Source: a virus. From it: a stretch of DNA of 64,000 nt. The stretch is taken from the IMG/VR virus record IMGVR_UViG_3300050821_001592, positions 1 to 64,000 of that record. The stretch is one strand, 5' to 3'. Positions within the stretch are counted from its first letter, which is position 1, and the number at the start of each line of letters is the position of its first letter. The translations under genes and the position numbers were made by a program. Of the stretch, positions 5,100 to 54,412 are shown piece by piece. The notes under the pieces were generated by a model, which was not told where the DNA came from, searched no databases, and worked only from the letters and a program-made list of their open reading frames with translations.

Positions 5100-5447
5100 A
5101 TGACAGCCAAAAAGCAAAGCACTACTCGTGGTACCGAGAAGGACTTCAACACCCGGACGTCTTTGAAGCAGAAGTTCCAAGACTATCGTACTAACGCAAT
5201 GTCGTATATATCCACGTTGCGCTTCCCGAAAACTTCGCCCGCTTTCTACATCAAGGGCTATGACGTTACACCGACGGGCAAGAAACCGAACGCCCTGTCC
5301 GCGCCGGAATTACTCGCTATCGTCAGTACTGCTGCAAAGCTCGGCAAAACCGTAACGGTCACCGTGTCGGGTTCGGGCGAGGCTGCTCAGGTCGAATTCC
5401 ATTTCGTGGATTCCACACCCGCAATTCCGTCTGCGCTGTATTTCTAG
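5100..5447 (+). CDS. Hypothetical protein
   Basis: GGAGG RBS before ATG at 5100. Confidence 0.7.
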   Translation: MTAKKQSTTRGTEKDFNTRTSLKQKFQDYRTNAMSYISTLRFPKTSPAFYIKGYDVTPTGKKPNALSAPELLAIVSTAAKLGKTVTVTVSGSGEAAQVEFHFVDSTPAIPSALYF

Positions 5448-5455
5448 GAGAGACC

Positions 5456-5653
5456 ATGACGTTGCATGCCGCTGCTAAAGCTTTTTATGGATGCCGTTTC
5501 ATGGAGAAGCTCCTCGAAACTGTGGGCGACGACGCTGTGTCCCGTAAAGTAATATCCGAGACATACCTCGACCGGGGGCTGGAGTCTATCGTAGAGAACG
5601 CAGGCGTTCAAGCCGGATTGGAACTGCGTAAGAGAATACTAGGAGGAAGCTAG
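5456..5653 (+). CDS. Hypothetical protein
   Basis: AGGAG RBS. Confidence 0.6.
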   Translation: MTLHAAAKAFYGCRFMEKLLETVGDDAVSRKVISETYLDRGLESIVENAGVQAGLELRKRILGGS

Positions 5654-5773
5654 AAATGGCGTTTCGGGCTGGCAACCAACCAAGTCCGAACAGCAGAATA
5701 ATAAGCGCCGATTCGGGGGTGCTCGTTTTAGAGACCCACAAACGGGTCGATTTGATATTCAAGGGGACGCAAT

Positions 5774-6229
5774 ATGAAAAAAGATGTTCTAGCGGGCGGA
5801 TACGCCCGAACCGCGCAATTTATCGGAGGCGTCGGAGACGACGATTTCTCTCGCAATCTATCCACGGAACCGCGTAATGAATTCACGCCAGAACCCACAG
5901 TCGCACCTAAGCGCAAGACCTTTCGGCCTGCTGGGGATGTTCTCCTCATCCGTCGGGTTGAGGCCAAACTAGGCAGTGGTATTCTCGAACTGGCTGATTC
6001 GGTCGAAAAGGAACAACCCGTGGAGGGCGTCATTCTGAACGTGGGTCCGAAGGTCACAACCTTTGAAATCGGCCAAACAGTCGCATTCGGTAAGTACTCG
6101 GGTCAATTGTTTAAGCTCAACGGCGAAGAGCTTCTGCTTGCTAAGGAAGACGAAATGTTGGGCACGATTGAGAATGCGCTTGACAACGAGTCTGAAGTAG
6201 GCGATGATTCACCTTCAGGATGTCTCTAG
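5774..6229 (+). CDS. groES: GroES co-chaperonin with N-terminal extension
   Basis: FRPAGDVLLIRR...SGILEL...EGVILNVGP...GQTVAFGKYSG...NGEELLLAKEDEMLG. Confidence 0.9.
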   Translation: MKKDVLAGGYARTAQFIGGVGDDDFSRNLSTEPRNEFTPEPTVAPKRKTFRPAGDVLLIRRVEAKLGSGILELADSVEKEQPVEGVILNVGPKVTTFEIGQTVAFGKYSGQLFKLNGEELLLAKEDEMLGTIENALDNESEVGDDSPSGCL

Positions 6230-6237
6230 GAGCAATC

Positions 6238-6906
6238 ATGAGTGATGAACAGGCCATTGTCGGGGAAGTTGAAGCGGGTCGCGCAGCGAAGATTAAGCGC
6301 GAAATCAATAGGTTAATCAAGGGTGTTAGCTCATCTTCGTTTGACCTCGCCGATTTGCTGTATGAAGTCAAGAGCAAGAATTTTCACTCCGAGTGGGGCT
6401 TTACCTCATTCTCGAAATATCTCAAAAGTCTGGCTGAGTTGGGCATGAAGTACAGTAAGTGTTATTATCTGTATCGCGTGACCGAGAACGGCGCGGATTC
6501 GGGGCTGACCCGCGCTGAATACGAACCTATCGGATTGACTAAACTGCGTATCATTACGCAATTGAAATCCGCTGGTGAATTCAACGGCGTGCCGATGTCT
6601 ATGGTTATTCGCGAGCTGACTCTCAAGGCGGCTACGATGACACCCGAGGAAGTACAGTTCGAAGTCGACACCATTAAGGGCTTGACGGATGATGAATCGA
6701 TGGTCTGGATTAACTTCAAGGTCAAGAAATTGGCCCGTGAAAATGTCATCAAGCCCGCGATTGCGCTCATGAAGAAACAGTGTCCCGAGTCTCAGCTCGT
6801 TGACGAAGATGGTAGTGTTACAGAGATGAGCGACGGCGCGGCTCTGGAGATGATGGCTGCTAACCTGATGGCTGACCCGAATTATAACGTCGAAGAGCCC
6901 CAATAG
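6238..6906 (+). CDS. Hypothetical protein, possibly DNA-binding
   Basis: AGGAG RBS; LYEVKSKNFHSEWGFTSFSKY motif; frame continues past TAG to 6990. Confidence 0.7.
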   Translation: MSDEQAIVGEVEAGRAAKIKREINRLIKGVSSSSFDLADLLYEVKSKNFHSEWGFTSFSKYLKSLAELGMKYSKCYYLYRVTENGADSGLTRAEYEPIGLTKLRIITQLKSAGEFNGVPMSMVIRELTLKAATMTPEEVQFEVDTIKGLTDDESMVWINFKVKKLARENVIKPAIALMKKQCPESQLVDEDGSVTEMSDGAALEMMAANLMADPNYNVEEPQ

Positions 6907-6999: not shown

Positions 7000-7182
7000 A
7001 TGACACAAACACGTAAGCTGTGGGCGGTAGTTATGGAGCACGACCGTTTCACCACCCTGTGGATTTTAGCCCCTACGGCTGTAAGAGCCGCCGAAAAAGC
7101 GATTCGTTTTTGTACGAAAGATGGGGTTTATCACCCGGTGGTTAGAGAAGTGAAATCCCACGGTACGATTGACGTTTTCTAA
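7000..7182 (+). CDS. Hypothetical protein
   Basis: AAGGAGG RBS. Confidence 0.7.
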   Translation: MTQTRKLWAVVMEHDRFTTLWILAPTAVRAAEKAIRFCTKDGVYHPVVREVKSHGTIDVF

Positions 7183-7207
7183 ATTCCGTTAGGTTACAGA
7201 GGTTTGC

Positions 7208-7414
7208 ATGTTAAAGAATAAACGGTGTCAAGCGGGACATGCTAAGCGTGGTGGGGGATGGATTTTATTCTTCCGTCCGTCGGATGAAAAGCAATACAGA
7301 CAATGTCTTAACATAGGCAGCGTCAAGGTTAACAATGAGGATTATACCCCTGAGAGGGGTGTTGACGCTGTTATTTCATTATGTGCTGAATGCAACCGTA
7401 CTTCATTGGGGTGA
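7208..7414 (+). CDS. Small Cys-containing hypothetical protein
   Basis: GAGG RBS; C-terminal CxxC. Confidence 0.55.
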   Translation: MLKNKRCQAGHAKRGGGWILFFRPSDEKQYRQCLNIGSVKVNNEDYTPERGVDAVISLCAECNRTSLG

Positions 7415-9132: not shown

Positions 9133-10833
9133 ATGCGAGAGCGACACTTCCAATCCGAAGCAGTTGACGCGAGTCTCGCAGCATACGACGCGGGCGTCCA
9201 TAAACAACTACTTGTCATGGCGACGGGCACAGGCAAGACCCATTGTTTTGGTCGATTATATGAGGCCATGAAAACCCGTCTCGGGGGGCAGATGCTCGTA
9301 CTTGCCCACACAGATGACCTAGTGAAGCAAAATCGAGACAGACTTGAACACATGCACGGTGTGGCGAACGTGAGTATGGAGATGGGGGAATACTATGCAA
9401 ACCCGGAGTCGCCTATACTCAGTGCCAGTGTACAGACGCTCGGTAGAAAAGGAACAAACCGTCTTGACAAATTCGATTGGACCAACATTGATAAAATCGT
9501 TGTGGATGAGGCTCATCACTCTACAACTGACGCTTATAGACGCATCCTTGAGCGGGCTGGGGTGCTTGAACCGTCAAGTCGAAAGCTACTCTTCGGCGTT
9601 ACGGCGACTCCGCAGCGAACGGACGGGATTGCTCTCGACTCCGTATATGACAAAGTTATCTACCTCTACCCTCTTCGTAAAGCAATCACAGATGGGTGGC
9701 TCGTCGACATTAGAGGGTACTGCGTCAGGACAACCACGTCGCTTGAGGGTGTCTCCAAAACCGACGGGGATTTCTCCCGAAAAGAATTATCTGAACGGGT
9801 CAACTCACCCCAACGCAATCAACAAATCGTGGATGTCTGGGGGAGAGTTGGTGAGCAACGAAAAACCGTTATCTACTGCGTGGATATTGAACACGCGCAA
9901 AGAGTGGCCCAAGAGTTTAGAGTATCTGGAATTACGGCAGAAGCCGTATGGGGAGATGATGTTGAGCGGAGGGACAAGATACAACGTCACATACACGGCC
10001 AGACCCGCGTCTTGTGCGTATGCGGACTTCTCATTGAGGGATATGATGACCCAACAATTGCGTGTGTTATACTTGCTCGTCCTACCCAGAGTACTATCCT
10101 TCTTCCCCAAATGGTAGGTCGCGGTACTCGGTTAGAAGACAATATCAATTTGAAGGACCGCAACCCCCTCGACAAGGTCAAGCGGGATGTCATTGTTGTG
10201 TACTTCATTGACGGTAATCCAGCACCCTCCTTGGTTACGCTGCCCACGTTGATGGGGATGTCCAATAATCTGGACCTAGAAGGTCGGTCTTTGCTGGAAG
10301 TCACAGAAGCGGTAGAAGCTCTCCAAGAAGATAACCCCCATGTCGATTTCTTGAATCTCGATTCGTTATCGGGGGCGAAGACGCTCATAGAGCAAGTCGA
10401 CTTGTTCCAAGTGAGATTCCCGCAGGAAGTCAAGGACAGCTCAGAATTGACGTGGTATAAAGCCTTAACAGGCGGGTATAAGATGCTCATACCGAAGGAA
10501 GGGCCCGAACGTCAAGGCGTCGTTCGTGTCTATGAAAACGTTCTAGGGCAATGGGAGCTAGACGGAGAGATTAACGGTGAACAATTCCACGGTTTACGAA
10601 GTTCCTTCGAAGAGGCGATTAAAGTCACCGACGAGCAGATTCGAAAGCGGGTAAGCAAGCAAACGCTGAGCTGTATCGTACGTGAGGCAAAATGGCACAA
10701 TAATCCCGTGACTCGGGGTCAAAAGAAAATGCTAACGATGCTATTTCCGTGGAGGAAATTCGACTTTAGTCAGGTGAAGAGTGGTGAAGCGAGCAAGTTG
10801 ATAACAGAGACCATACTAAAGAGAAAGAGATGA
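9133..10833 (+). CDS. SF2 DEAH helicase (ResIII/Irc3-like)
   Basis: ATGTGKT, DEAHH, TATP, EGYDDP, QMVGRGTR. Confidence 0.93.
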   Translation: MRERHFQSEAVDASLAAYDAGVHKQLLVMATGTGKTHCFGRLYEAMKTRLGGQMLVLAHTDDLVKQNRDRLEHMHGVANVSMEMGEYYANPESPILSASVQTLGRKGTNRLDKFDWTNIDKIVVDEAHHSTTDAYRRILERAGVLEPSSRKLLFGVTATPQRTDGIALDSVYDKVIYLYPLRKAITDGWLVDIRGYCVRTTTSLEGVSKTDGDFSRKELSERVNSPQRNQQIVDVWGRVGEQRKTVIYCVDIEHAQRVAQEFRVSGITAEAVWGDDVERRDKIQRHIHGQTRVLCVCGLLIEGYDDPTIACVILARPTQSTILLPQMVGRGTRLEDNINLKDRNPLDKVKRDVIVVYFIDGNPAPSLVTLPTLMGMSNNLDLEGRSLLEVTEAVEALQEDNPHVDFLNLDSLSGAKTLIEQVDLFQVRFPQEVKDSSELTWYKALTGGYKMLIPKEGPERQGVVRVYENVLGQWELDGEINGEQFHGLRSSFEEAIKVTDEQIRKRVSKQTLSCIVREAKWHNNPVTRGQKKMLTMLFPWRKFDFSQVKSGEASKLITETILKRKR

Positions 10834-10982
10834 TTATAGAGACTCAAGAGGCTTTCTGTTTGTGGCTCAGACCTCTTACGTATACGACCTATGCCTTTAG
10901 GTTCAAGACGGGCAGTACCTACCCTATCAAGATTCAAATCGAGAAGAAGGGCGACCGAGTTATCATAACGGAGGAAGAATGA
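10830..10982 (+). CDS. Hypothetical protein (50 aa, not in ORF track)
   Basis: ATGA overlaps at both ends; MIIETQEAFCLWL... Confidence 0.55.
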   Translation: MIIETQEAFCLWLRPLTYTTYAFRFKTGSTYPIKIQIEKKGDRVIITEEE

Positions 10983-11314
10983 ACGCAAATTATAGTCGTC
11001 AACGAATTCATAACATCGCGGGCGAGGTTGCTGCGGAGACGTATCGGGCGGGCACGATGTTCCCGCCAATGAACAGCCCGCACGAGGCGGCTTTCGTTAT
11101 TGAGGAAGAATGGGAAGAGTATCGACAGGAAGTGTTTAAACACAACTTAACGAAGCCGAATCGCGATACTCGCCCCCGTCAGCGAGAGGAACTCATACAG
11201 TTGGCCGCGATGTGCCTACGGGCGATTATCGATACGATTGATGAGCGGGTCCCCGATTGGCCGACCGAGGTAACGCGATTGTTCGGAATGCAGGGAGGGG
11301 TAGATAATGACTAA
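10979..11314 (+). CDS. MazG-like all-alpha NTP pyrophosphohydrolase
   Basis: HEAAFVIEEEWEE...REELIQLAAM pattern. Confidence 0.7.
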   Translation: MNANYSRQRIHNIAGEVAAETYRAGTMFPPMNSPHEAAFVIEEEWEEYRQEVFKHNLTKPNRDTRPRQREELIQLAAMCLRAIIDTIDERVPDWPTEVTRLFGMQGGVDND

Positions 11315-11528
11315 GACGCTGAAGCAGTTTGATGTCACCGCACGACTTAAACTCATGGTTCAGATTACTATAAAAGCCGAATCGTTGGCCGATGCCCTCG
11401 AACAAAGCAAAACACTCCGAGAACAAAAGTTCGTGTCGTTCGAGGGTGAATACATAGACGGCAGCCTTGTTATCACAGGCGTGAGCAAATCCGGTTGTTG
11501 GGATGTTAGTCAGGAGGACAGTCAATGA
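11307..11528 (+). CDS. Hypothetical protein
   Basis: GGAGG RBS. Confidence 0.65.
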   Translation: MTKTLKQFDVTARLKLMVQITIKAESLADALEQSKTLREQKFVSFEGEYIDGSLVITGVSKSGCWDVSQEDSQ

Positions 11529-11719
11529 AATATAATTTAACGTTGGAAATGACTCAAGCACAAGCAGATTTAATCCTCTTGGGGTTGTGGAGTACGAACG
11601 ACCCGAACGACCCGCGTCTCCATGACTGTCGGGGGGCTTTCATCGCCGACCGGGCTCAAGTTTATTCCTACATCGGAAAGGACGTCATTATTAGCACTTC
11701 CATTGAGTTCGTTCAGTGA
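11525..11719 (+). CDS. Hypothetical protein
   Basis: AGGAGG RBS and ATGA overlap. Confidence 0.6.
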   Translation: MKYNLTLEMTQAQADLILLGLWSTNDPNDPRLHDCRGAFIADRAQVYSYIGKDVIISTSIEFVQ

Positions 11720-23846: not shown

Positions 23847-24572
23847 TTAGAACCCGGTTTCGGTCTTAACGAATTGTCGGGCAAGAAATCCCGTCACGAA
23901 TCCAATTTCGAACCACTTACGCCTGCCCTTACGAGCGGCGTCTTTCGCGACCTTGACCTGTTCCTTGCAAACTTGAGCATCGTCGACGGCTTTGAGCTTC
24001 AAGCCCGATACCTCTGTATTTAAGTCCGAGACTTGCTTAGCGTCTGCGGAGAGTAGAGAAAGGGCGTCTGTGGTTTGCTGGGTGCTGTTCGCGAGCTGTT
24101 GTGTTAACACAGGGACTTGTTCAAGAACATCAACCGTGGCGTGGGCATTCGCGGGAGAGACATCCACCCCTCCATCGGGGGTCATCGGAGCGCCATCGAA
24201 CTTAGCTTGAGGGACTAGTGTCTGCCAACGTGCGATTAGTTGTGACGTAGTCATGACATCGTCCGTCTTTTGTTGTTTCGCCAAAGCGGTAGACAGCGCA
24301 GTATTCGCTTGTATCAACGCGGCATCTTGTGCTTGCATTTTCGCTTGCAGTGCATCAAATGCAATTCTATCCGAAGCGACTTGTGCAGCAATCGCAGCGT
24401 TTGCGTCTGCTTGTGCTTTATCGGCGAGGAGGGCCTTGCCGTATTCTACGTTGTCGTGAGCGGCTATGGTAGACTCGACCTTGCCCGCGACTCCGAAGAC
24501 AAGCCCGGCTGCGAGCACAACCATCAGAATAGTTTCATGAGCTTTGACGAATTTTATGTATGACTCAAGCAT
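23847..24572 (-). CDS. Spanin-like (Rz-like) membrane coiled-coil protein
   Basis: GGAG RBS; N-terminal TM, Ala/Gln coiled coil, hydrophobic C-terminus. Confidence 0.55.
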   Translation of the reverse strand: MLESYIKFVKAHETILMVVLAAGLVFGVAGKVESTIAAHDNVEYGKALLADKAQADANAAIAAQVASDRIAFDALQAKMQAQDAALIQANTALSTALAKQQKTDDVMTTSQLIARWQTLVPQAKFDGAPMTPDGGVDVSPANAHATVDVLEQVPVLTQQLANSTQQTTDALSLLSADAKQVSDLNTEVSGLKLKAVDDAQVCKEQVKVAKDAARKGRRKWFEIGFVTGFLARQFVKTETGF

Positions 24573-24934: not shown

Positions 24935-25426
24935 CTATACCGTATTACCGATTACATATGTATCTTGAGTGACCTTTTTTGCTGCTCCATCTCGGAACTT
25001 CTTATGTCGCTCCTGCATTGCTGGGATTTTTGACGCGACATAATCCAACGCTTTCGCATAGAGAGACGTTGAGTTCCCCACAACAGGTCGGTCATCTATT
25101 AGATTGCCTGTTGTTTGGGCGTCGAGAAGAATGCCCATACACGCTCTAGCGTGACCAAGATGGTGGCATCCAGAGTCTTCGGCCTCTTCTTGGCCTTCGA
25201 ACCACAAGTCGAGGTGGCGCTTCGCCGCCGCTACATATATCGACGCGATAACTTTATTTGCTCTCCAGTTAAACGGGTCATATTTGCCCGCGCCGTCCAT
25301 CATAGCAAGACCTTCCCATGCGAGAGCGATAGCGGGGATTTTTGTGACGTCTACCTTCTTAGCTCCTAGAATGTCCTTAGGATTACTTCCCAAGGCTTGT
25401 GAGGTTGGCGCAACCGTCGTGGACAT
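24935..25426 (-). CDS. DUF5664 dATP/dGTP diphosphohydrolase
   Basis: NPKD, GAGKYDPFNWR, AAKRHL, EDSGCHHLGHA. Confidence 0.85.
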   Translation of the reverse strand: MSTTVAPTSQALGSNPKDILGAKKVDVTKIPAIALAWEGLAMMDGAGKYDPFNWRANKVIASIYVAAAKRHLDLWFEGQEEAEDSGCHHLGHARACMGILLDAQTTGNLIDDRPVVGNSTSLYAKALDYVASKIPAMQERHKKFRDGAAKKVTQDTYVIGNTV

Positions 25427-25913
25427 CTCTTTCCTCCGATAGGTATTTCTTGACTTCATCCCACGTCCCAAAAAGTTTGACAGCCGGATACACCGAGGTC
25501 ACTCCCGCCCCGTCGAGATAGTGGAACACGTTTTCTTTCTTACCGAGTATGATGAGTTCTCGTGTGGGTTTGCCAAAATCTAAAGATTGAGCAACCGCGA
25601 GTCCATATACAAACCCCGATTCGAAATGTCGTCCTCCTCTCGAAGACGCCGCAACCGTCGCGTCAATGAGCATCTTGTCTTCCGGCACGGTCAGGACGAC
25701 TTTGTCAGCCCGAAGGATATCTTCTAGGTCCGCGACTGCGGTCTCACGAAGATATTCGTCTGTGCATTGTTGGAGAGTAACGTTGTGCGGAACTTTCTCG
25801 TCCGCCCACCGCGAGGAACAGGCGATGCCAAGGAGTGCCAGCTCCTCGGCTCGCTGTTTAACACGGTCCTTGTCCGAGAACATGGACGCGATGTATACCG
25901 TTAGGGGCTTCAC
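25383..25913 (-). CDS. Nucleoside 2-deoxyribosyltransferase / nucleotide N-glycosidase family protein
   Basis: VYIAS, DLEDILRAD, GGRHFESG. Confidence 0.8.
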   Translation of the reverse strand: MKPLTVYIASMFSDKDRVKQRAEELALLGIACSSRWADEKVPHNVTLQQCTDEYLRETAVADLEDILRADKVVLTVPEDKMLIDATVAASSRGGRHFESGFVYGLAVAQSLDFGKPTRELIILGKKENVFHYLDGAGVTSVYPAVKLFGTWDEVKKYLSEERDVHDGCANLTSLGK

Positions 25914-44418: not shown

Positions 44419-45408
44419 TTACACCGTCCGCGATTGCATGCCCTGCTGTTTCTTCATCATCTGAGCATTGGTAAGTAAATCCCAATTGTTGAGGAATATG
44501 TTACGGTCTTCGTCATCAATGCCCGATTGACGGGCTAACACAGCGGCCTTGAATTGAGAGTTATACATCGGGGCTCTCGGGTCGTCATTAAACGCTAACA
44601 TCCAGCCGAGGAAGCCAAGGCTATAGACGTTTTCAAGATAGTCCGGTAACGGGGCCCACGTCTGGTTAATGCTTGTGATGAGCGGCGGGGTGAGCTGGGT
44701 GTGAATACTCACGGGGTAGTTTTTATTGGGTGAAGGCATGACGCGGAAAGTCATGTTGCCATTTGCGTCTTCGGATTCGGGGCTGATGAATGCCGACCGA
44801 CCTTGTGTGGTATTCAGTGCAAGATTGTCTTTTACTGTCAACTCAACCCAATTCGGATTCGTATTTGTAATATCAAAAACCGAAGCGTGTTCGATATGTG
44901 AAAACCATCCGGTGGTTGCTCCCCCCGATGCGTTATACCCTGCGGGCGGGGCCACGACATAGTCTTGAGTCGTTGTCGCCGTGAATGTGCCTGTCGTATC
45001 GGTACCATCTGGTAAATTGACGAGCGCCGTAAAACCAGTGTAATTCGGAAAGGTTCCGATTACGCTCTGGACAGATACGAGAAATCCGTTGAGCTTTGTA
45101 ATAGTGCCGAATGCTGAACCCGTGAGAGGCATACCAACGCCAAAGCTATTGGCGGCGGTTACGGTCATCAGTCCGCCTGCAATGGTTACTGCGGTAGTAG
45201 AGGCAGAAGGCGCAACGGTCGACTCGTTGAATGTAATCTCCAGAGTGTTCCACCACCACACGAACGGGGGGCCGAGTATGGTTTGAATAACAATGTTGGC
45301 AGACGTCAAGGCGGGCTCCAACGAATTCCCGATAACCGGGTTATGGTTGAAACACAACCTCTTAGCCCAATTAACTGTATCGCCTATCTTACGGGTTGAC
45401 GCTGCCAT
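44419..45408 (-). CDS. Head-tail adaptor paralogue 2
   Basis: QDY, FRVMPSP, WAPLPD motifs. Confidence 0.7.
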   Translation of the reverse strand: MAASTRKIGDTVNWAKRLCFNHNPVIGNSLEPALTSANIVIQTILGPPFVWWWNTLEITFNESTVAPSASTTAVTIAGGLMTVTAANSFGVGMPLTGSAFGTITKLNGFLVSVQSVIGTFPNYTGFTALVNLPDGTDTTGTFTATTTQDYVVAPPAGYNASGGATTGWFSHIEHASVFDITNTNPNWVELTVKDNLALNTTQGRSAFISPESEDANGNMTFRVMPSPNKNYPVSIHTQLTPPLITSINQTWAPLPDYLENVYSLGFLGWMLAFNDDPRAPMYNSQFKAAVLARQSGIDDEDRNIFLNNWDLLTNAQMMKKQQGMQSRTV

Positions 45409-45418
45409 GATGGGTCCT

Positions 45419-45847
45419 TTAGACTGCTCGCAATTTACGAATTACATCAAACACAAAAAGAAACGGAGAGAATGCACCGAGCCATTCACCTAACATCAAC
45501 AAAAAGTCGCCGATGGAATAAATCGCATTCTTCATGTCAAAAATGTCTGCGAGTAGGTTGAGATGGGTCTGGCTCGTCATAACACAATGAGTGTCGTCGA
45601 TGAACCCCTCGGATTCGAGAGCCTGCAAATCGAACGTAGCTTGAATGACGATGTCGAGGTCTTCACTCGTGTCTGCCGTCTTTTCTAATCCTAAGCGGTA
45701 CTGCGCTACTTTATAGGTGTTCCACATTACCGGGAATCGGTCGTTGTTCGCGTAAAGTACGGCTTGGTTAGAGGCTGCGCCTACCAGAGTGAGCACGATT
45801 GGTATAGCAAGGATGTAAAGAGAGGTCTTCCTGAGGGATTTGAACAT
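45419..45847 (-). CDS. DUF5317-like membrane protein
   Basis: GAASNQAVLYANNDRFPV...H...LNLLADIF...YSIGDFLL; GGAG RBS. Confidence 0.75.
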   Translation of the reverse strand: MFKSLRKTSLYILAIPIVLTLVGAASNQAVLYANNDRFPVMWNTYKVAQYRLGLEKTADTSEDLDIVIQATFDLQALESEGFIDDTHCVMTSQTHLNLLADIFDMKNAIYSIGDFLLMLGEWLGAFSPFLFVFDVIRKLRAV

Positions 45848-45852
45848 CGGGT

Positions 45853-45935
45853 CTCCGACAGAGCATCCTTTTTTATAGCGTGCCTGCGAACGCAGCCCTC
45901 TGTTCACGCTGTAGAGGGGGCCGAAGCCCCCGCTA
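45853..45935 (-). promoter_or_regulatory. cUUCGg hairpin plus H-type pseudoknot next to the DUF5317 RBS
   Basis: GGGGGC-TTCG-GCCCCC; AGCGTG/CACGCT crossed by ACAGAG/CTCTGT. Confidence 0.55.
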
Positions 45936-45937
45936 GT

Positions 45938-46111
45938 TTACTTGACTGCGGTGCCTACGCACATGCAGAGATAAGGACCACCATCGCCACCGAAATAGCA
46001 TTCCAGAACGGATGGAGGGGTACATTTGGGTTTCTCGTACGCATACACCCGAGCGGCGAACACGGTTGCCAAAGCGAACAAGGCCACTGCAAAGGCCAAT
46101 TTCTTCTTCAT
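45938..46111 (-). CDS. Secreted Cys-rich peptide precursor (57 aa, not in ORF track)
   Basis: AGGAG RBS; MKKKLAFAVALFALATVFAARVYA then YEKPKCTPPSVLECYFGGDGGPYLCMCVGTAVK. Confidence 0.85.
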   Translation of the reverse strand: MKKKLAFAVALFALATVFAARVYAYEKPKCTPPSVLECYFGGDGGPYLCMCVGTAVK

Positions 46112-46146
46112 TAAGTCTCCTAGGTCATACTTTTTCCACTCTTGCG

Positions 46147-46175
46147 ATTATAGCACAATCGAAAGAGTATGTCAA
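46147..46175 (-). promoter_or_regulatory. Perfect consensus sigma70 promoter
   Basis: TTGACA-17 bp-TATAAT with extended TG. Confidence 0.9.
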
Positions 46176-46178
46176 GGG

Positions 46179-47492
46179 TTAATAAGACCCCCACTGCCCG
46201 TAAGGCCATTGAGGGCTGATTCCACTACCGTAGTTGAGGCCCGTATCCATGACTCCGGCTTCGCTCGGAACAAATCCAAAAGCATCGTCTTCGCGACTTC
46301 CTTGACTGACCGAGAGATTCAACGACTCCATCCACAGTTTTTTCGCCATTTCAAACTTCGCTCGGACCTTGGGGTCGGGCGATGCGGCGTAGCAATATGC
46401 AAAGAACCCCTGCTTGAAGTAGCGATAAAAATCATCGGGAATAGGGTCGAGCGTTTGATTGATATTAGTAAATTGCGCGATTCGGGCTTGTCCGATAGGT
46501 GCAATCTGCCATACAGGTCCCGTTTGAGAAGGCATCGGAGAGATACGGAAACCTTGGCCCTTAGGCCAGACGGCTGTCCACTGAACCGTACCGTCCATTA
46601 CTGTAGTGGCTACCGTATTTTGGGACGCGAGGGTCGGATAGACGGGAGAGATAGAAAACGTGCCGACGGTGTCCGTTCCATTCGGAAGATTGACGGTTGC
46701 AGTAAACCCGGTTGGGCTCGCGGTCAGAATCGTTATGGGTAGCCCGTTCAAGTCCGTCAAGGTCGTAAAACCACTGCCAATTACAACGGTGCCTGTTTTC
46801 AAGCCATTAGGAGCTGCGACAGTGAGTGTCCCGCCTGAAATTACGACGGACGTAGCTATGGGCGCGAAGGGGTTGAAGACGCCGCAAGTGCCATACCCCC
46901 CGTTCGGGTTGAAAGTGGTTGAGGGTGTGATAATCCAAAAATTGCCTGCTTGGTCTTGAACTTGAGTGATGTTATTGGTAGGCGTGGCGGTAAGCCCGAG
47001 GGGGTTAGTATAAACAACGCCAGCGGAGGGGTTGCCGAGGCCGGAAAAACTCTGGATAGTGCTCTGGCCCCACGTACCATAAGTAAGGGTGTCGTTTTCC
47101 ATCCAGCAGATTTGCGCGTATCGCGAACCTTGTCCGTTTACGCCAGTCAGCAGTAAGTCCCGCTTTACTTCAATCACAGCCGTAGGTTTAGGTACCACAG
47201 TTGAAGAAGTGTTGTACGCGAGACAAGACTCTAGCCAACCGAGATTGGTCAAAGAGCTGGCATAGTCTTGCTGCCAAGAGTTGACGAAGAATTGGGGTAC
47301 AAGGATTCGGTTGAATTTGAAATTAAAACGAGAGCCGCGAGCAGAACCCAGAAGCATGTCCGTCATCACGTCGTTAGTTATGCTGAGGGCCAGTGTTTCG
47401 TAATATCCACCTGTGGGCAGAACGGGGGCTAGGTCCCCCATCGTACGGGCTTGGTCCACAAGATTTTGGACTGTGTAGGAACTGTTTGCCAT
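46179..47492 (-). CDS. Head-tail adaptor paralogue 1
   Basis: AAGGAG RBS; QQDY, FRISPMP, LDPIPDD. Confidence 0.7.
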   Translation of the reverse strand: MANSSYTVQNLVDQARTMGDLAPVLPTGGYYETLALSITNDVMTDMLLGSARGSRFNFKFNRILVPQFFVNSWQQDYASSLTNLGWLESCLAYNTSSTVVPKPTAVIEVKRDLLLTGVNGQGSRYAQICWMENDTLTYGTWGQSTIQSFSGLGNPSAGVVYTNPLGLTATPTNNITQVQDQAGNFWIITPSTTFNPNGGYGTCGVFNPFAPIATSVVISGGTLTVAAPNGLKTGTVVIGSGFTTLTDLNGLPITILTASPTGFTATVNLPNGTDTVGTFSISPVYPTLASQNTVATTVMDGTVQWTAVWPKGQGFRISPMPSQTGPVWQIAPIGQARIAQFTNINQTLDPIPDDFYRYFKQGFFAYCYAASPDPKVRAKFEMAKKLWMESLNLSVSQGSREDDAFGFVPSEAGVMDTGLNYGSGISPQWPYGQWGSY

Positions 47493-47510
47493 GACACTCC
47501 TTGAAATACT

Positions 47511-47583
47511 GTTGGACGGTGGGGGCGTTATACCCACGACCCCTCGGCGTCTACCCGAGTGCTCTACTCTGAGCTACGTCCAA
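47511..47583 (-). ncRNA. tRNA-like cloverleaf with non-canonical loops
   Basis: TTGGACG TA GCTC AGAGTA GAGC A CTCGG GTAGACG CCGAG GGGTC GTGGG TATAACGCC CCCAC CGTCCAA C; all four stems pair. Confidence 0.8.
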
Positions 47584-54019: not shown

Positions 54020-54162
54020 ATTTGTGGCAGTTTAGAGTGATGCCCAGCACTAGCGGTCTTTCGACCAGATATCTCTGCGGCTCCTCGCGGACCCCCGCAG
54101 TGCGGGGTTAGTTTTGGATGAGGAACCAACTGTCCTCGAAACGGGCGAGCGACACCCGTTTA
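54020..54162 (-). ncRNA. Structured intergenic RNA candidate
   Basis: AAACGGGTG/CGCCCGTTT, GAGGA/TCCTC, CCCCGC/GCGGGG, GGTC-GAAA-GACC. Confidence 0.5.
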
Positions 54163-54169
54163 TGTTTGA

Positions 54170-54400
54170 TTACGCAGCCGGAGTTGCCGGAGTTGCAGGC
54201 GCGGGGGTCAACGCGGCGACTACGGAAGCGTTGATTGCATCAACACTGGCCTTAGCGGCGTCCACCTGTGCCTGAGGCACCGTATTGGCTTCTTGTGCGA
54301 TAAGCGAGGCAACGTTACCTGAGAGGGTAGCGATACTGGTATTCAGTGCGTCAATTGCCATTCTTAGTCTCCTTAATTCATGAATCAGTTCAAAGTCCAT
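54170..54400 (-). CDS. Small coiled-coil protein
   Basis: GGAGG RBS; possible second start at MAID. Confidence 0.65.
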   Translation of the reverse strand: MDFELIHELRRLRMAIDALNTSIATLSGNVASLIAQEANTVPQAQVDAAKASVDAINASVVAALTPAPATPATPAA

Positions 54401-54412
54401 ACACCCTCCAGA

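Follow-up and report, generated by a model that had tools for sequence, protein, structure and literature searches.

In lambdoid and HK97-like phages, promoter–gene–terminator units inserted among the conserved genes are called morons. For compact pseudoknotted RNAs, the SAM-II, preQ1-II, and fluoride riboswitches and the leader pseudoknot of T4 gene 32 serve as comparators. Elements resembling both kinds stand side by side in an IMG/VR virus record (IMGVR_UViG_3300050821_001592; linear, 84.7 kb, estimated 89% complete), the first 64 kb of which were analyzed here and are referred to as the window. The stretch in question (positions 45419–46175) probably comprises two units, an orphan moron encoding a small cysteine-rich peptide and a cassette in which a leader RNA precedes a gene for a DUF5317-like membrane protein, with the peptide unpaired and the DUF5317-like protein functioning as an envelope enzyme.

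The peptide unit resembles a moron in having its own sigma-70 promoter, followed by one small open reading frame (ORF) and then a hairpin, and in being inserted between genes that lie near each other in most relatives. It differs in that its hairpin lacks a U tract, which probably leaves the unit without transcriptional insulation, and in that its peptide cargo has no homologue anywhere searched. Like the H-type pseudoknot riboswitches and the T4 gene 32 leader, the leader RNA is a compact 5′-leader pseudoknot ending beside the ribosome-binding site, and it shares with them conserved nucleotides at the junctions and a third loop rich in A. It differs from them in having no Rfam match and in serving genes for exported phage enzymes.

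A conserved pseudoknotted leader RNA

The spacer in front of the DUF5317-like gene contains an element shared by many related phages. From 5′ to 3′, it consists of P1 (5–6 base pairs, bp), GAA, CAGAG, GG, a P2 hairpin whose length varies, P1's 3′ strand, an A-rich linker that closes with AUG, and CUCUG. In the window, P1 is formed by positions 45909–45905 with 45882–45878 and P2 by the hairpin at 45895–45884, while CAGAG (45902–45898) pairs with CUCUG (45863–45859) to close the pseudoknot, and GAA, GG, and AUG are the conserved junctions. The pairing is strongly supported by covariation. In a seed of 20 sequences, 92.4% of the cells pair vs 70.3% after shuffling, and 12 of the 15 pairs have changed on both sides. 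With 41 distinct sequences, in an alignment that is model-fitted for P1 and P2, 94.2% of the cells pair vs 70.1% when shuffled and 31–44% in slid-partner controls, and compensatory changes are again seen at 12 of the 15 pairs. Loci that were found by their protein and not by the motif supply the variant pseudoknot pairs CAAGG/CCUUG, CUGAG/CUCAG, and CAGCG/CGCUG. The covariance model R1 scores 52.2 bits (E 2.4e-13) at the leader, the next match in the window reaching 12.4 bits, and the leader is its single hit in the whole 84.7-kb record.

Three covarying helices, invariant junctions, and an end 2 nucleotides (nt) before the ribosome-binding site give the leader the structural features of a riboswitch. 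Its most likely role, judged from its position, is to tune translation initiation, setting how much product is made or when. A search of Rfam 15 (4227 families) gave no match in positions 45300–46300 of the window (1001 bases) at E up to 10, and leaders taken from six related loci likewise matched no family at E up to 1; in the literature library searched, nothing relevant on an RNA motif together with trypsin and phage was found among the papers listed. Layouts of the HDV-like, pistol, and hammerhead ribozymes were considered and rejected, given, by eye, the variable inner hairpin, often with what appear to be stable tetraloop caps, conserved strings that differ from those of these ribozymes, and the absence of an Rfam match. 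The leader is a candidate for a class of cis-regulatory RNA because it covaries, lies outside Rfam 15, and is tied to exported proteins.

The leader occurs in two forms, which differ in the distance from the pseudoknot to the start codon: 11–16 nt in the short form, to which the window's leader belongs, and 22–27 nt in the long form. The latter (loci L070, L113, L009, L131, L011, L127, L032, L008, L025, L090, L054, L162, L078, and L089) has an additional helix around the 3′ strand of the pseudoknot and a conserved CUGAGC. This helix pairs the linker with a segment past the pseudoknot and encloses a GUAAUG-CUCUG-nACUGAGC core, with the ribosome-binding site directly after it. It measures 5–11 bp and was placed by script at a roughly constant position in most of the 14 sequences, with single-sequence shuffle p values of 0.006–0.5; the MAFFT alignment of the long form is too ragged for a formal pair count. 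A scan of prokaryote genomes with the long-form core pattern returned five stretches, of which R1 matched three weakly (11.5–21 bits) and two not at all. The best of the weak matches, L205, was rejected, as it lies in a coding gene on the opposite strand; neither a prophage nor a hint of the host emerged from these genomes.

Genes carried by the leader

A scan of viral contigs with the DUF5317-like protein yielded 51 related loci (34–63% identity) with 37 distinct upstream sequences. The leader stands immediately upstream of the DUF5317-like gene in 33 of these loci and nowhere else in their 356 kb. Two gene-blind pattern scans of viral contigs, filtered with R1, gave 31 loci of at least 28 bits, at which the leader is followed by a secreted protease-like gene in 21 cases, a DUF5317-like gene in nine, and a ClpB-like ATPase gene in one. 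All 13 of the 21 protease genes that were scanned against Pfam exceed the Trypsin_2 or Trypsin cut-off and also match phrog_9683; the other eight are identical or near copies or truncated ORFs and were judged by eye. The trypsin-like cargoes bear a signal peptide or a lipobox. A metagenome scan added 55 stretches, many of them duplicates of viral contigs and thus not independent. Together with the viral locus L200, they provide 18 loci of at least 31 bits, carrying 13 protease-like genes, one DUF5317-like gene, and four genes for other exported proteins (82, 109, and 174 amino acids, aa).

The phages with a protease cargo are kin of the window phage, with about 83% identity in the major head protein and about 60% in the portal-like protein and the terminase, and they use the same slots. 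In L092, the leader and a protease gene lie between homologues of the 452-aa and 329-aa genes that flank the locus in the window, which is the slot of the leader and DUF5317-like gene in the window phage, and in L054 they follow the 452-aa homologue. In five others (L108, L133, L138, L170, and L121), they follow the portal-like gene, a place held by the leader and a DUF5317-like gene in 15 loci. The corresponding slot in the window, a 283-nt gap after the portal-like gene (54130–54412), contains no detectable leader.

Exactly one leader is present in each of 11 phage genomes, seven of them estimated to be 99–100% complete and four 65–89%. None of the five protease phages among them has a DUF5317-like gene, and none of the six DUF5317 phages has a Trypsin_2 match, in a search that recovers the protease in all five positive controls. 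The cargo thus alternates: each of the 11 genomes carries DUF5317 or a protease, never both. Since trypsin-like proteases share both the leader and the slots of DUF5317 but never accompany it, the most likely function of the DUF5317-like protein is that of an enzyme acting on the envelope, possibly a peptidase. The hydrolase or peptidase role proposed in the initial annotation, which was made from the sequence alone, thereby gains indirect support from the secreted trypsin-like proteases that share the leader, whereas the parallel with signal peptidase II (LspA) on which that proposal was built finds no backing, as discussed below.

Several individual cassettes have unusual contents or neighbors. 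In L162, a leader at 6523–6579 (minus strand, 35.4 bits) precedes a gene for a cytoplasmic ClpB-like AAA+ protein (5270–6505, minus strand; AAA_2, 103.7 bits), the sole non-exported cargo seen. In L206 (4034–5104), as in L200, the leader is followed by a gene for an 82-aa cysteine-rich protein with a lipobox-like LCAC and a gene for a 241-aa protein with a membrane segment, a coiled coil, and another membrane segment. Homologues of the 241-aa protein are encoded after the DUF5317-like gene in L009 (3442–4182) and near it in L008 (3754–4879), where the cassette also lies near a cell-wall enzyme with a Tlde1 domain (48.6 bits); the window homologue (23850–24572, minus strand) is 21 kb away from the cassette. 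The setting in L206, L009, and L008, which are more distantly related phages, may be a lysis-type neighborhood.

The peptide unit

The elements reported by the initial annotation, namely the promoter, the AGGAG, the 57-codon ORF with a signal peptide and four cysteines, the structured spacer, and the DUF5317-like gene, are all present in the sequence. The promoter carries a TG at −15/−14, would start transcription near 46140, and is the sole 12/12 match in the 64-kb window, where about 0.023 would be expected when both strands and three spacer lengths are counted and the TG is left out of the calculation. The predicted peptide begins with MKKK, continues with a hydrophobic core of 16 residues, and has VYA at −3 to −1; by eye and by hydropathy, it shows the basic n-region, hydrophobic h-region, and small −3/−1 residues of a Sec signal peptide. 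Cleavage may take place after VYA, and ALA at residues 13–15 is a second possible site. The four cysteines, at residues 30, 38, 49, and 51, all fall within the last 28 residues. This anatomy agrees with the earlier description of a self-promoted, moron-like gene for a four-cysteine peptide that is probably exported by the Sec pathway.

The codon-usage score of the ORF is 0.175 in frame vs −0.16 and −0.19 off frame; among windows drawn from the long genes of the phage, it exceeds each of 3000 read off frame and lies at the 30th percentile of those read in frame. The peptide is also recorded as a called protein in a large protein collection. The gene-like codon usage and the window-unique promoter suggest that the ORF is probably a real gene. 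Pieces of the locus were detected at 100% identity in four soil sequencing runs from four studies, one of DNA and three metatranscriptomes. Contigs from two of the metatranscriptome libraries, belonging to two studies, span the promoter and the peptide ORF (45868–46266 and 45934–46260). As DNA may be carried over into RNA libraries, these contigs hint only weakly at transcription. The evidence from the runs consists of assembled contigs, in which uncovered parts of the locus carry no meaning, and the contig ends (46266 and 46260; 45868 and 45934), which lie in low-coverage assemblies, were left uninterpreted.

The hairpin after the peptide stop codon has no T/U tract and is absent from the list produced by the terminator scan. 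It is not a canonical intrinsic terminator, and read-through is likely; one of the RNA-library contigs (45868–46266) bridges it into the leader. Because a hairpin without a U tract permits read-through, expression of the moron and of the DUF5317 cassette is probably coupled.

The peptide unit is an insertion peculiar to the window phage, and a moron except for its non-canonical hairpin. Among the 51 related loci, 16 have a 452-aa homologue on the 5′ side of the DUF5317-like gene, and 14 of these 16 also have a homologue of the 329-aa gene downstream. In 13 of the 16, only 16–131 nt separate the 452-aa homologue from the start of the DUF5317-like gene, whereas in the window an additional 268 nt (45911–46178, comprising the promoter, ORF, and hairpin) separate the stop codon of the 452-aa gene from the leader, which identifies the unit as phage-specific. 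With its own promoter and a position between genes that are adjacent in relatives, it has two hallmarks of a moron. When the window, L002, and L092 are aligned as DNA, the indel is visible but the leader is misaligned, and coordinates were used instead. ORFs that by eye resemble homing endonucleases of the GIY-YIG or endonuclease-VII/HNH type were noted just before the cassette in several relatives: in L013–L015 and L023 they follow the portal-like gene and precede the leader, and in L007, L016, L022, and L051 they are upstream of the leader or the gene. The slot before the cassette may be a preferred site of insertion; alternatively, the cassette could be mobile together with such ORFs.

No homologue of the peptide was detected in a search of 5.8 billion proteins, in which the sole match was the peptide itself; a second contig also encodes it. 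A tblastn search against the 51 related loci gave nothing better than E 0.12, and this match, in L004 and L006, was dismissed, as it lies on the opposite strand and has stops in all frames. A heuristic for small ORFs with a signal-peptide-like start, which recovers the window's own peptide, returned no such ORF on the 5′ side of the DUF5317-like gene at the 51 loci; downstream of the gene, it found two small hydrophobic ORFs. Matches of the peptide to Pfam DUF5992 (E 0.06) and phrog_34907 (E 0.029) fall mostly over the signal peptide and were discarded, as were its Atlas neighbors, which at 0.79 or below are at noise level. PADLOC returned no match for the peptide or the DUF5317-like protein.

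The DUF5317-like protein

The assignment of the neighboring gene to DUF5317 in the initial annotation is correct: the protein matches PF17248 in two stretches with 36.6 bits (gathering cut-off 25; E 5.7e-9), and a six-frame search of the genome, neighboring stretches included, gives 35.2 bits. A word-index search found 185 homologues, and 504 representatives were retrieved at E ≤ 0.001 among 1.84 billion proteins. The nearest Atlas clusters are 95–98% viral. No gene for an HD-GYP protein, which the initial annotation placed beside bacterial DUF5317 genes, or for a MASE9 protein was noticed here, a result obtained with no search aimed at either. Searching PDB with the sequence profile of the DUF5317-like alignment gave a chance match only (E 8.2), a scan of prokaryote genome contigs with the DUF5317 alignment gave 102 pattern matches and no relative, and no papers on DUF5317 or PF17248 were found in the literature library searched.

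Hydropathy places two hydrophobic segments at about residues 10–25 and 115–136. Among 129 representatives, taken from clusters mutually less than 50% identical, each of N27, N34, D84, H87, D101, S111, and D114 is conserved in 96% or more, with D101 present in 128 and D114 in 124. These conserved polar residues all lie in the loop between the two segments. Phage-type proteins differ from the bacterial ones by a hydrophilic, variable loop in their middle part. Because basic residues occur at both termini, the sequence suggests that both ends are cytoplasmic and that the conserved polar residues are in an outward-facing loop.

Proposed mechanism and alternative explanations

In the reading that we favor, a consensus promoter of the host type and a strong ribosome-binding site would drive synthesis of the 57-aa pre-peptide, which the general Sec pathway and signal peptidase I would probably export and cut with no need for a dedicated maturase, releasing a four-cysteine peptide of about 33 residues into the periplasm or the medium. 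Transcription from the promoter would probably also continue past the weak hairpin and reach the leader and the DUF5317-like gene. The peptide moron would be a later, independent insertion. Most simply, the leader and its exported cargo would form one unit that occupies a few hot spots within the structural module. The DUF5317-like product would be an inner-membrane protein whose conserved Asn, Asp, His, and Ser probably face the periplasm and which may act on a target in the host envelope late in infection. As alternative cargoes, it and the secreted serine proteases may perform a similar job on that envelope.

Some observations weigh against this reading. No leader precedes the DUF5317-like gene in 18 of the 51 loci, and the leader also serves four non-protease exported proteins and one cytoplasmic ATPase; the alternation of cargoes is evidence of shared regulation and position, not of shared biochemistry. 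Expression of the moron and the DUF5317-like gene is probably coupled in the window phage, which leaves room for a functional link. The nearest DUF5317 relatives, seven proteins of 67–73% identity on contigs of 708–3412 bases, lie outside the 51-locus survey for peptides, and short or fast-evolving peptides are missed by word-indexed searches.

Some of these points bear on a rather unlikely but serious alternative, that the DUF5317-like gene encodes a membrane protein with no enzymatic activity, for instance one for superinfection exclusion or lysis timing, which shares only translational control with the proteases. It would fit the exported non-protease cargoes of 82, 109, and 174 aa and the lysis-like setting of some cassettes, with the membrane coiled-coil protein beside them (L008, L009, and L206) and the Tlde1-domain enzyme nearby in L008. 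However, the near-invariance of seven polar positions (two Asn, three Asp, a His, and a Ser) across 129 clusters points to an active or ion-binding site more than to a passive membrane plug, and the either/or alternation with proteases is strict in the 11 genomes. There is only a small chance that the peptide was secondarily recruited in this one phage as an inhibitor, modulator, or membrane partner of the DUF5317-like enzyme. Small disulfide-rich secreted peptides are often enzyme inhibitors, the insertion lies exactly before the cassette and is probably co-transcribed with it, and another leader cargo is itself a cysteine-rich exported protein (82 aa, in L200 and L206). Yet the arrangement occurs once, so that co-variation cannot be followed, the slot seems to attract insertions in general, with homing-endonuclease-like genes (by eye) in other relatives, and the peptide and the 82-aa protein are not similar. 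A predicted complex of the DUF5317 alignment with the peptide scored 0.16 against a mark of 0.32, which gives no verdict and was used neither way. A smaller chance still attaches to a broader proposal, in which the leader is a new ligand- or protein-sensing riboregulator that times envelope enzymes, the DUF5317-like proteins are membrane peptidases interchangeable with proteases, and the peptide is their substrate or modulator. It is very unlikely that the 57-codon ORF is untranslated and that its promoter just supplies early transcription, or transcription by the host RNA polymerase, to the DUF5317 cassette. The peptide has no homologue that could reveal purifying selection, and the RNA-library contigs prove neither translation nor transcription, but the AGGAG is at ideal spacing, the signal-peptide architecture is canonical, and the codon usage is above that of every off-frame window.

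The initial annotation had instead paired the two genes, making the DUF5317-like protein an LspA-like aspartyl peptidase that matures the adjacent four-cysteine peptide into a phage signal for a host receptor, and this we find highly improbable. The two genes are indeed adjacent and probably co-transcribed from the moron promoter, the hairpin having no U tract, and the aspartate dyad it pointed to is real in that D101 and D114 are near-invariant. LspA and the DUF5317-like protein are also alike in being small inner-membrane proteins with two invariant Asp near the outer face. Beyond this, no resemblance was detected in sequence: a Pfam search at E up to 1 found no Peptidase_A8 (PF01252) in the DUF5317-like protein, and hhalign gave a probability of 0.3% against Escherichia coli LspA and of 0.7% against a profile of 15 Enterobacterales sequences, a narrow profile at 68–91% identity to its first sequence. 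LspA has four transmembrane helices, whereas two membrane segments are predicted here, and D101 and D114 lie in other motif contexts than the LspA pair. The peptide has no lipobox; its first cysteine is residue 30, six residues past VYA, which is an ordinary −3/−1 site that signal peptidase I could cut. The pairing itself is also not seen in the relatives examined. An adjacent secreted small ORF is found in none of the 51 related phage loci, the very absence among DUF5317 homologues that the initial annotation had named as contrary to its proposal, and across 504 representative clusters the DUF5317-like gene persists with no peptide. The peptide shares with arbitrium (AimP/AimR) only that a phage encodes a peptide with a signal sequence; it differs in being cysteine-rich and orphan, and its gene and its neighbors lie in the late structural module of a lytic-looking genome and not at a lysogeny switch. 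No AimR-like receptor is among the Pfam, PHROGs, and NCBIfam matches of the neighboring genes, a result obtained with no search aimed at receptor families.

Genome setting of the locus

The genes of the locus are all on the minus strand and follow one another in the order listed in Table 1. They are part of the late structural module, with matches to the terminase large subunit, the portal/connector (phrog_332), and the major head protein nearby, and the genome looks like that of a lytic phage. The description of the insertion site as lying between two adaptor genes held in part: the downstream 329-aa gene is weakly similar to SU10_adaptor (25.6 bits, under the Pfam cut-off of 27), whereas the upstream 452-aa gene has no family match in Pfam, PHROGs, or NCBIfam. 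Among 50,697 phage records, nothing matched the 4.5-kb region at the DNA level or the DUF5317-like protein.

Table 1. Features of the locus in the window, in the order of the minus strand.
Feature	Positions	Strand	Description	Basis or occurrence in relatives
Upstream structural-module gene	46179–47537	−	452 aa	Homologue immediately 5′ of the leader and DUF5317 cassette in relatives
Sigma-70-type promoter	46147–46175	−	TTGACA (46175–46170), 17-nt spacer ending in TGC, TATAAT (46152–46147)	
AGGAG ribosome-binding site	46117–46121	−	5 nt 5′ of the ATG at 46111	Sequence
57-codon ORF	45938–46111	−	Residues 1–24 signal-peptide-like, then a 33-aa C-x7-C-x10-C-x-C tail	
cUUCGg hairpin after the peptide stop codon	45912–45935	−	GGGGGC-TTCG-GCCCCC core (45931–45916)	Fold
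Conserved pseudoknotted leader RNA (structured spacer)	45859–45910	−		Model R1, covariation
GGAG ribosome-binding site of the DUF5317-like gene	45853–45856	−	2 nt past the 3′ strand of the pseudoknot, 5 nt before the ATG	
DUF5317-like membrane protein gene	45419–45847	−	142 aa	Pfam PF17248
Downstream gene	44419–45408	−	329 aa	Homologue 3′ of the DUF5317-like or protease cargo in relatives

Elsewhere in the window, a gene at 24935–25471 (minus strand) encodes a 178-aa protein with the N-terminal domain of dATP/dGTP diphosphohydrolase (PF18909, 79.5 bits), which we take to be a hint of modified-base nucleotide metabolism in this phage. No tRNA gene was detected in the window, while two related phages have one each (L070, 3487–3559, 68.8 bits; L009, 4383–4450, 34.9 bits). 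In L108, the homologue of the major head protein is recovered by tblastn in two pieces (10470–11595) with a group I intron match between them, below threshold at 22.5 vs 50 bits; L131 has two more sub-threshold group I intron matches (6264–6449, 28.6 bits, and 7097–7305, 21.8 bits).

Significance of the cassette

By itself, the peptide is one more orphan moron, and its surroundings count for more. The one-for-one alternation with secreted serine proteases in phages, behind the same leader and in the same slots, gives the widespread DUF5317 family its first functional handle. The leader is a compact, strongly covarying pseudoknot outside Rfam 15 that, with a single exception among the well-formed copies found, precedes an exported cargo, which makes it a tractable candidate for a new class of cis-regulatory RNA in uncultivated soil phages.

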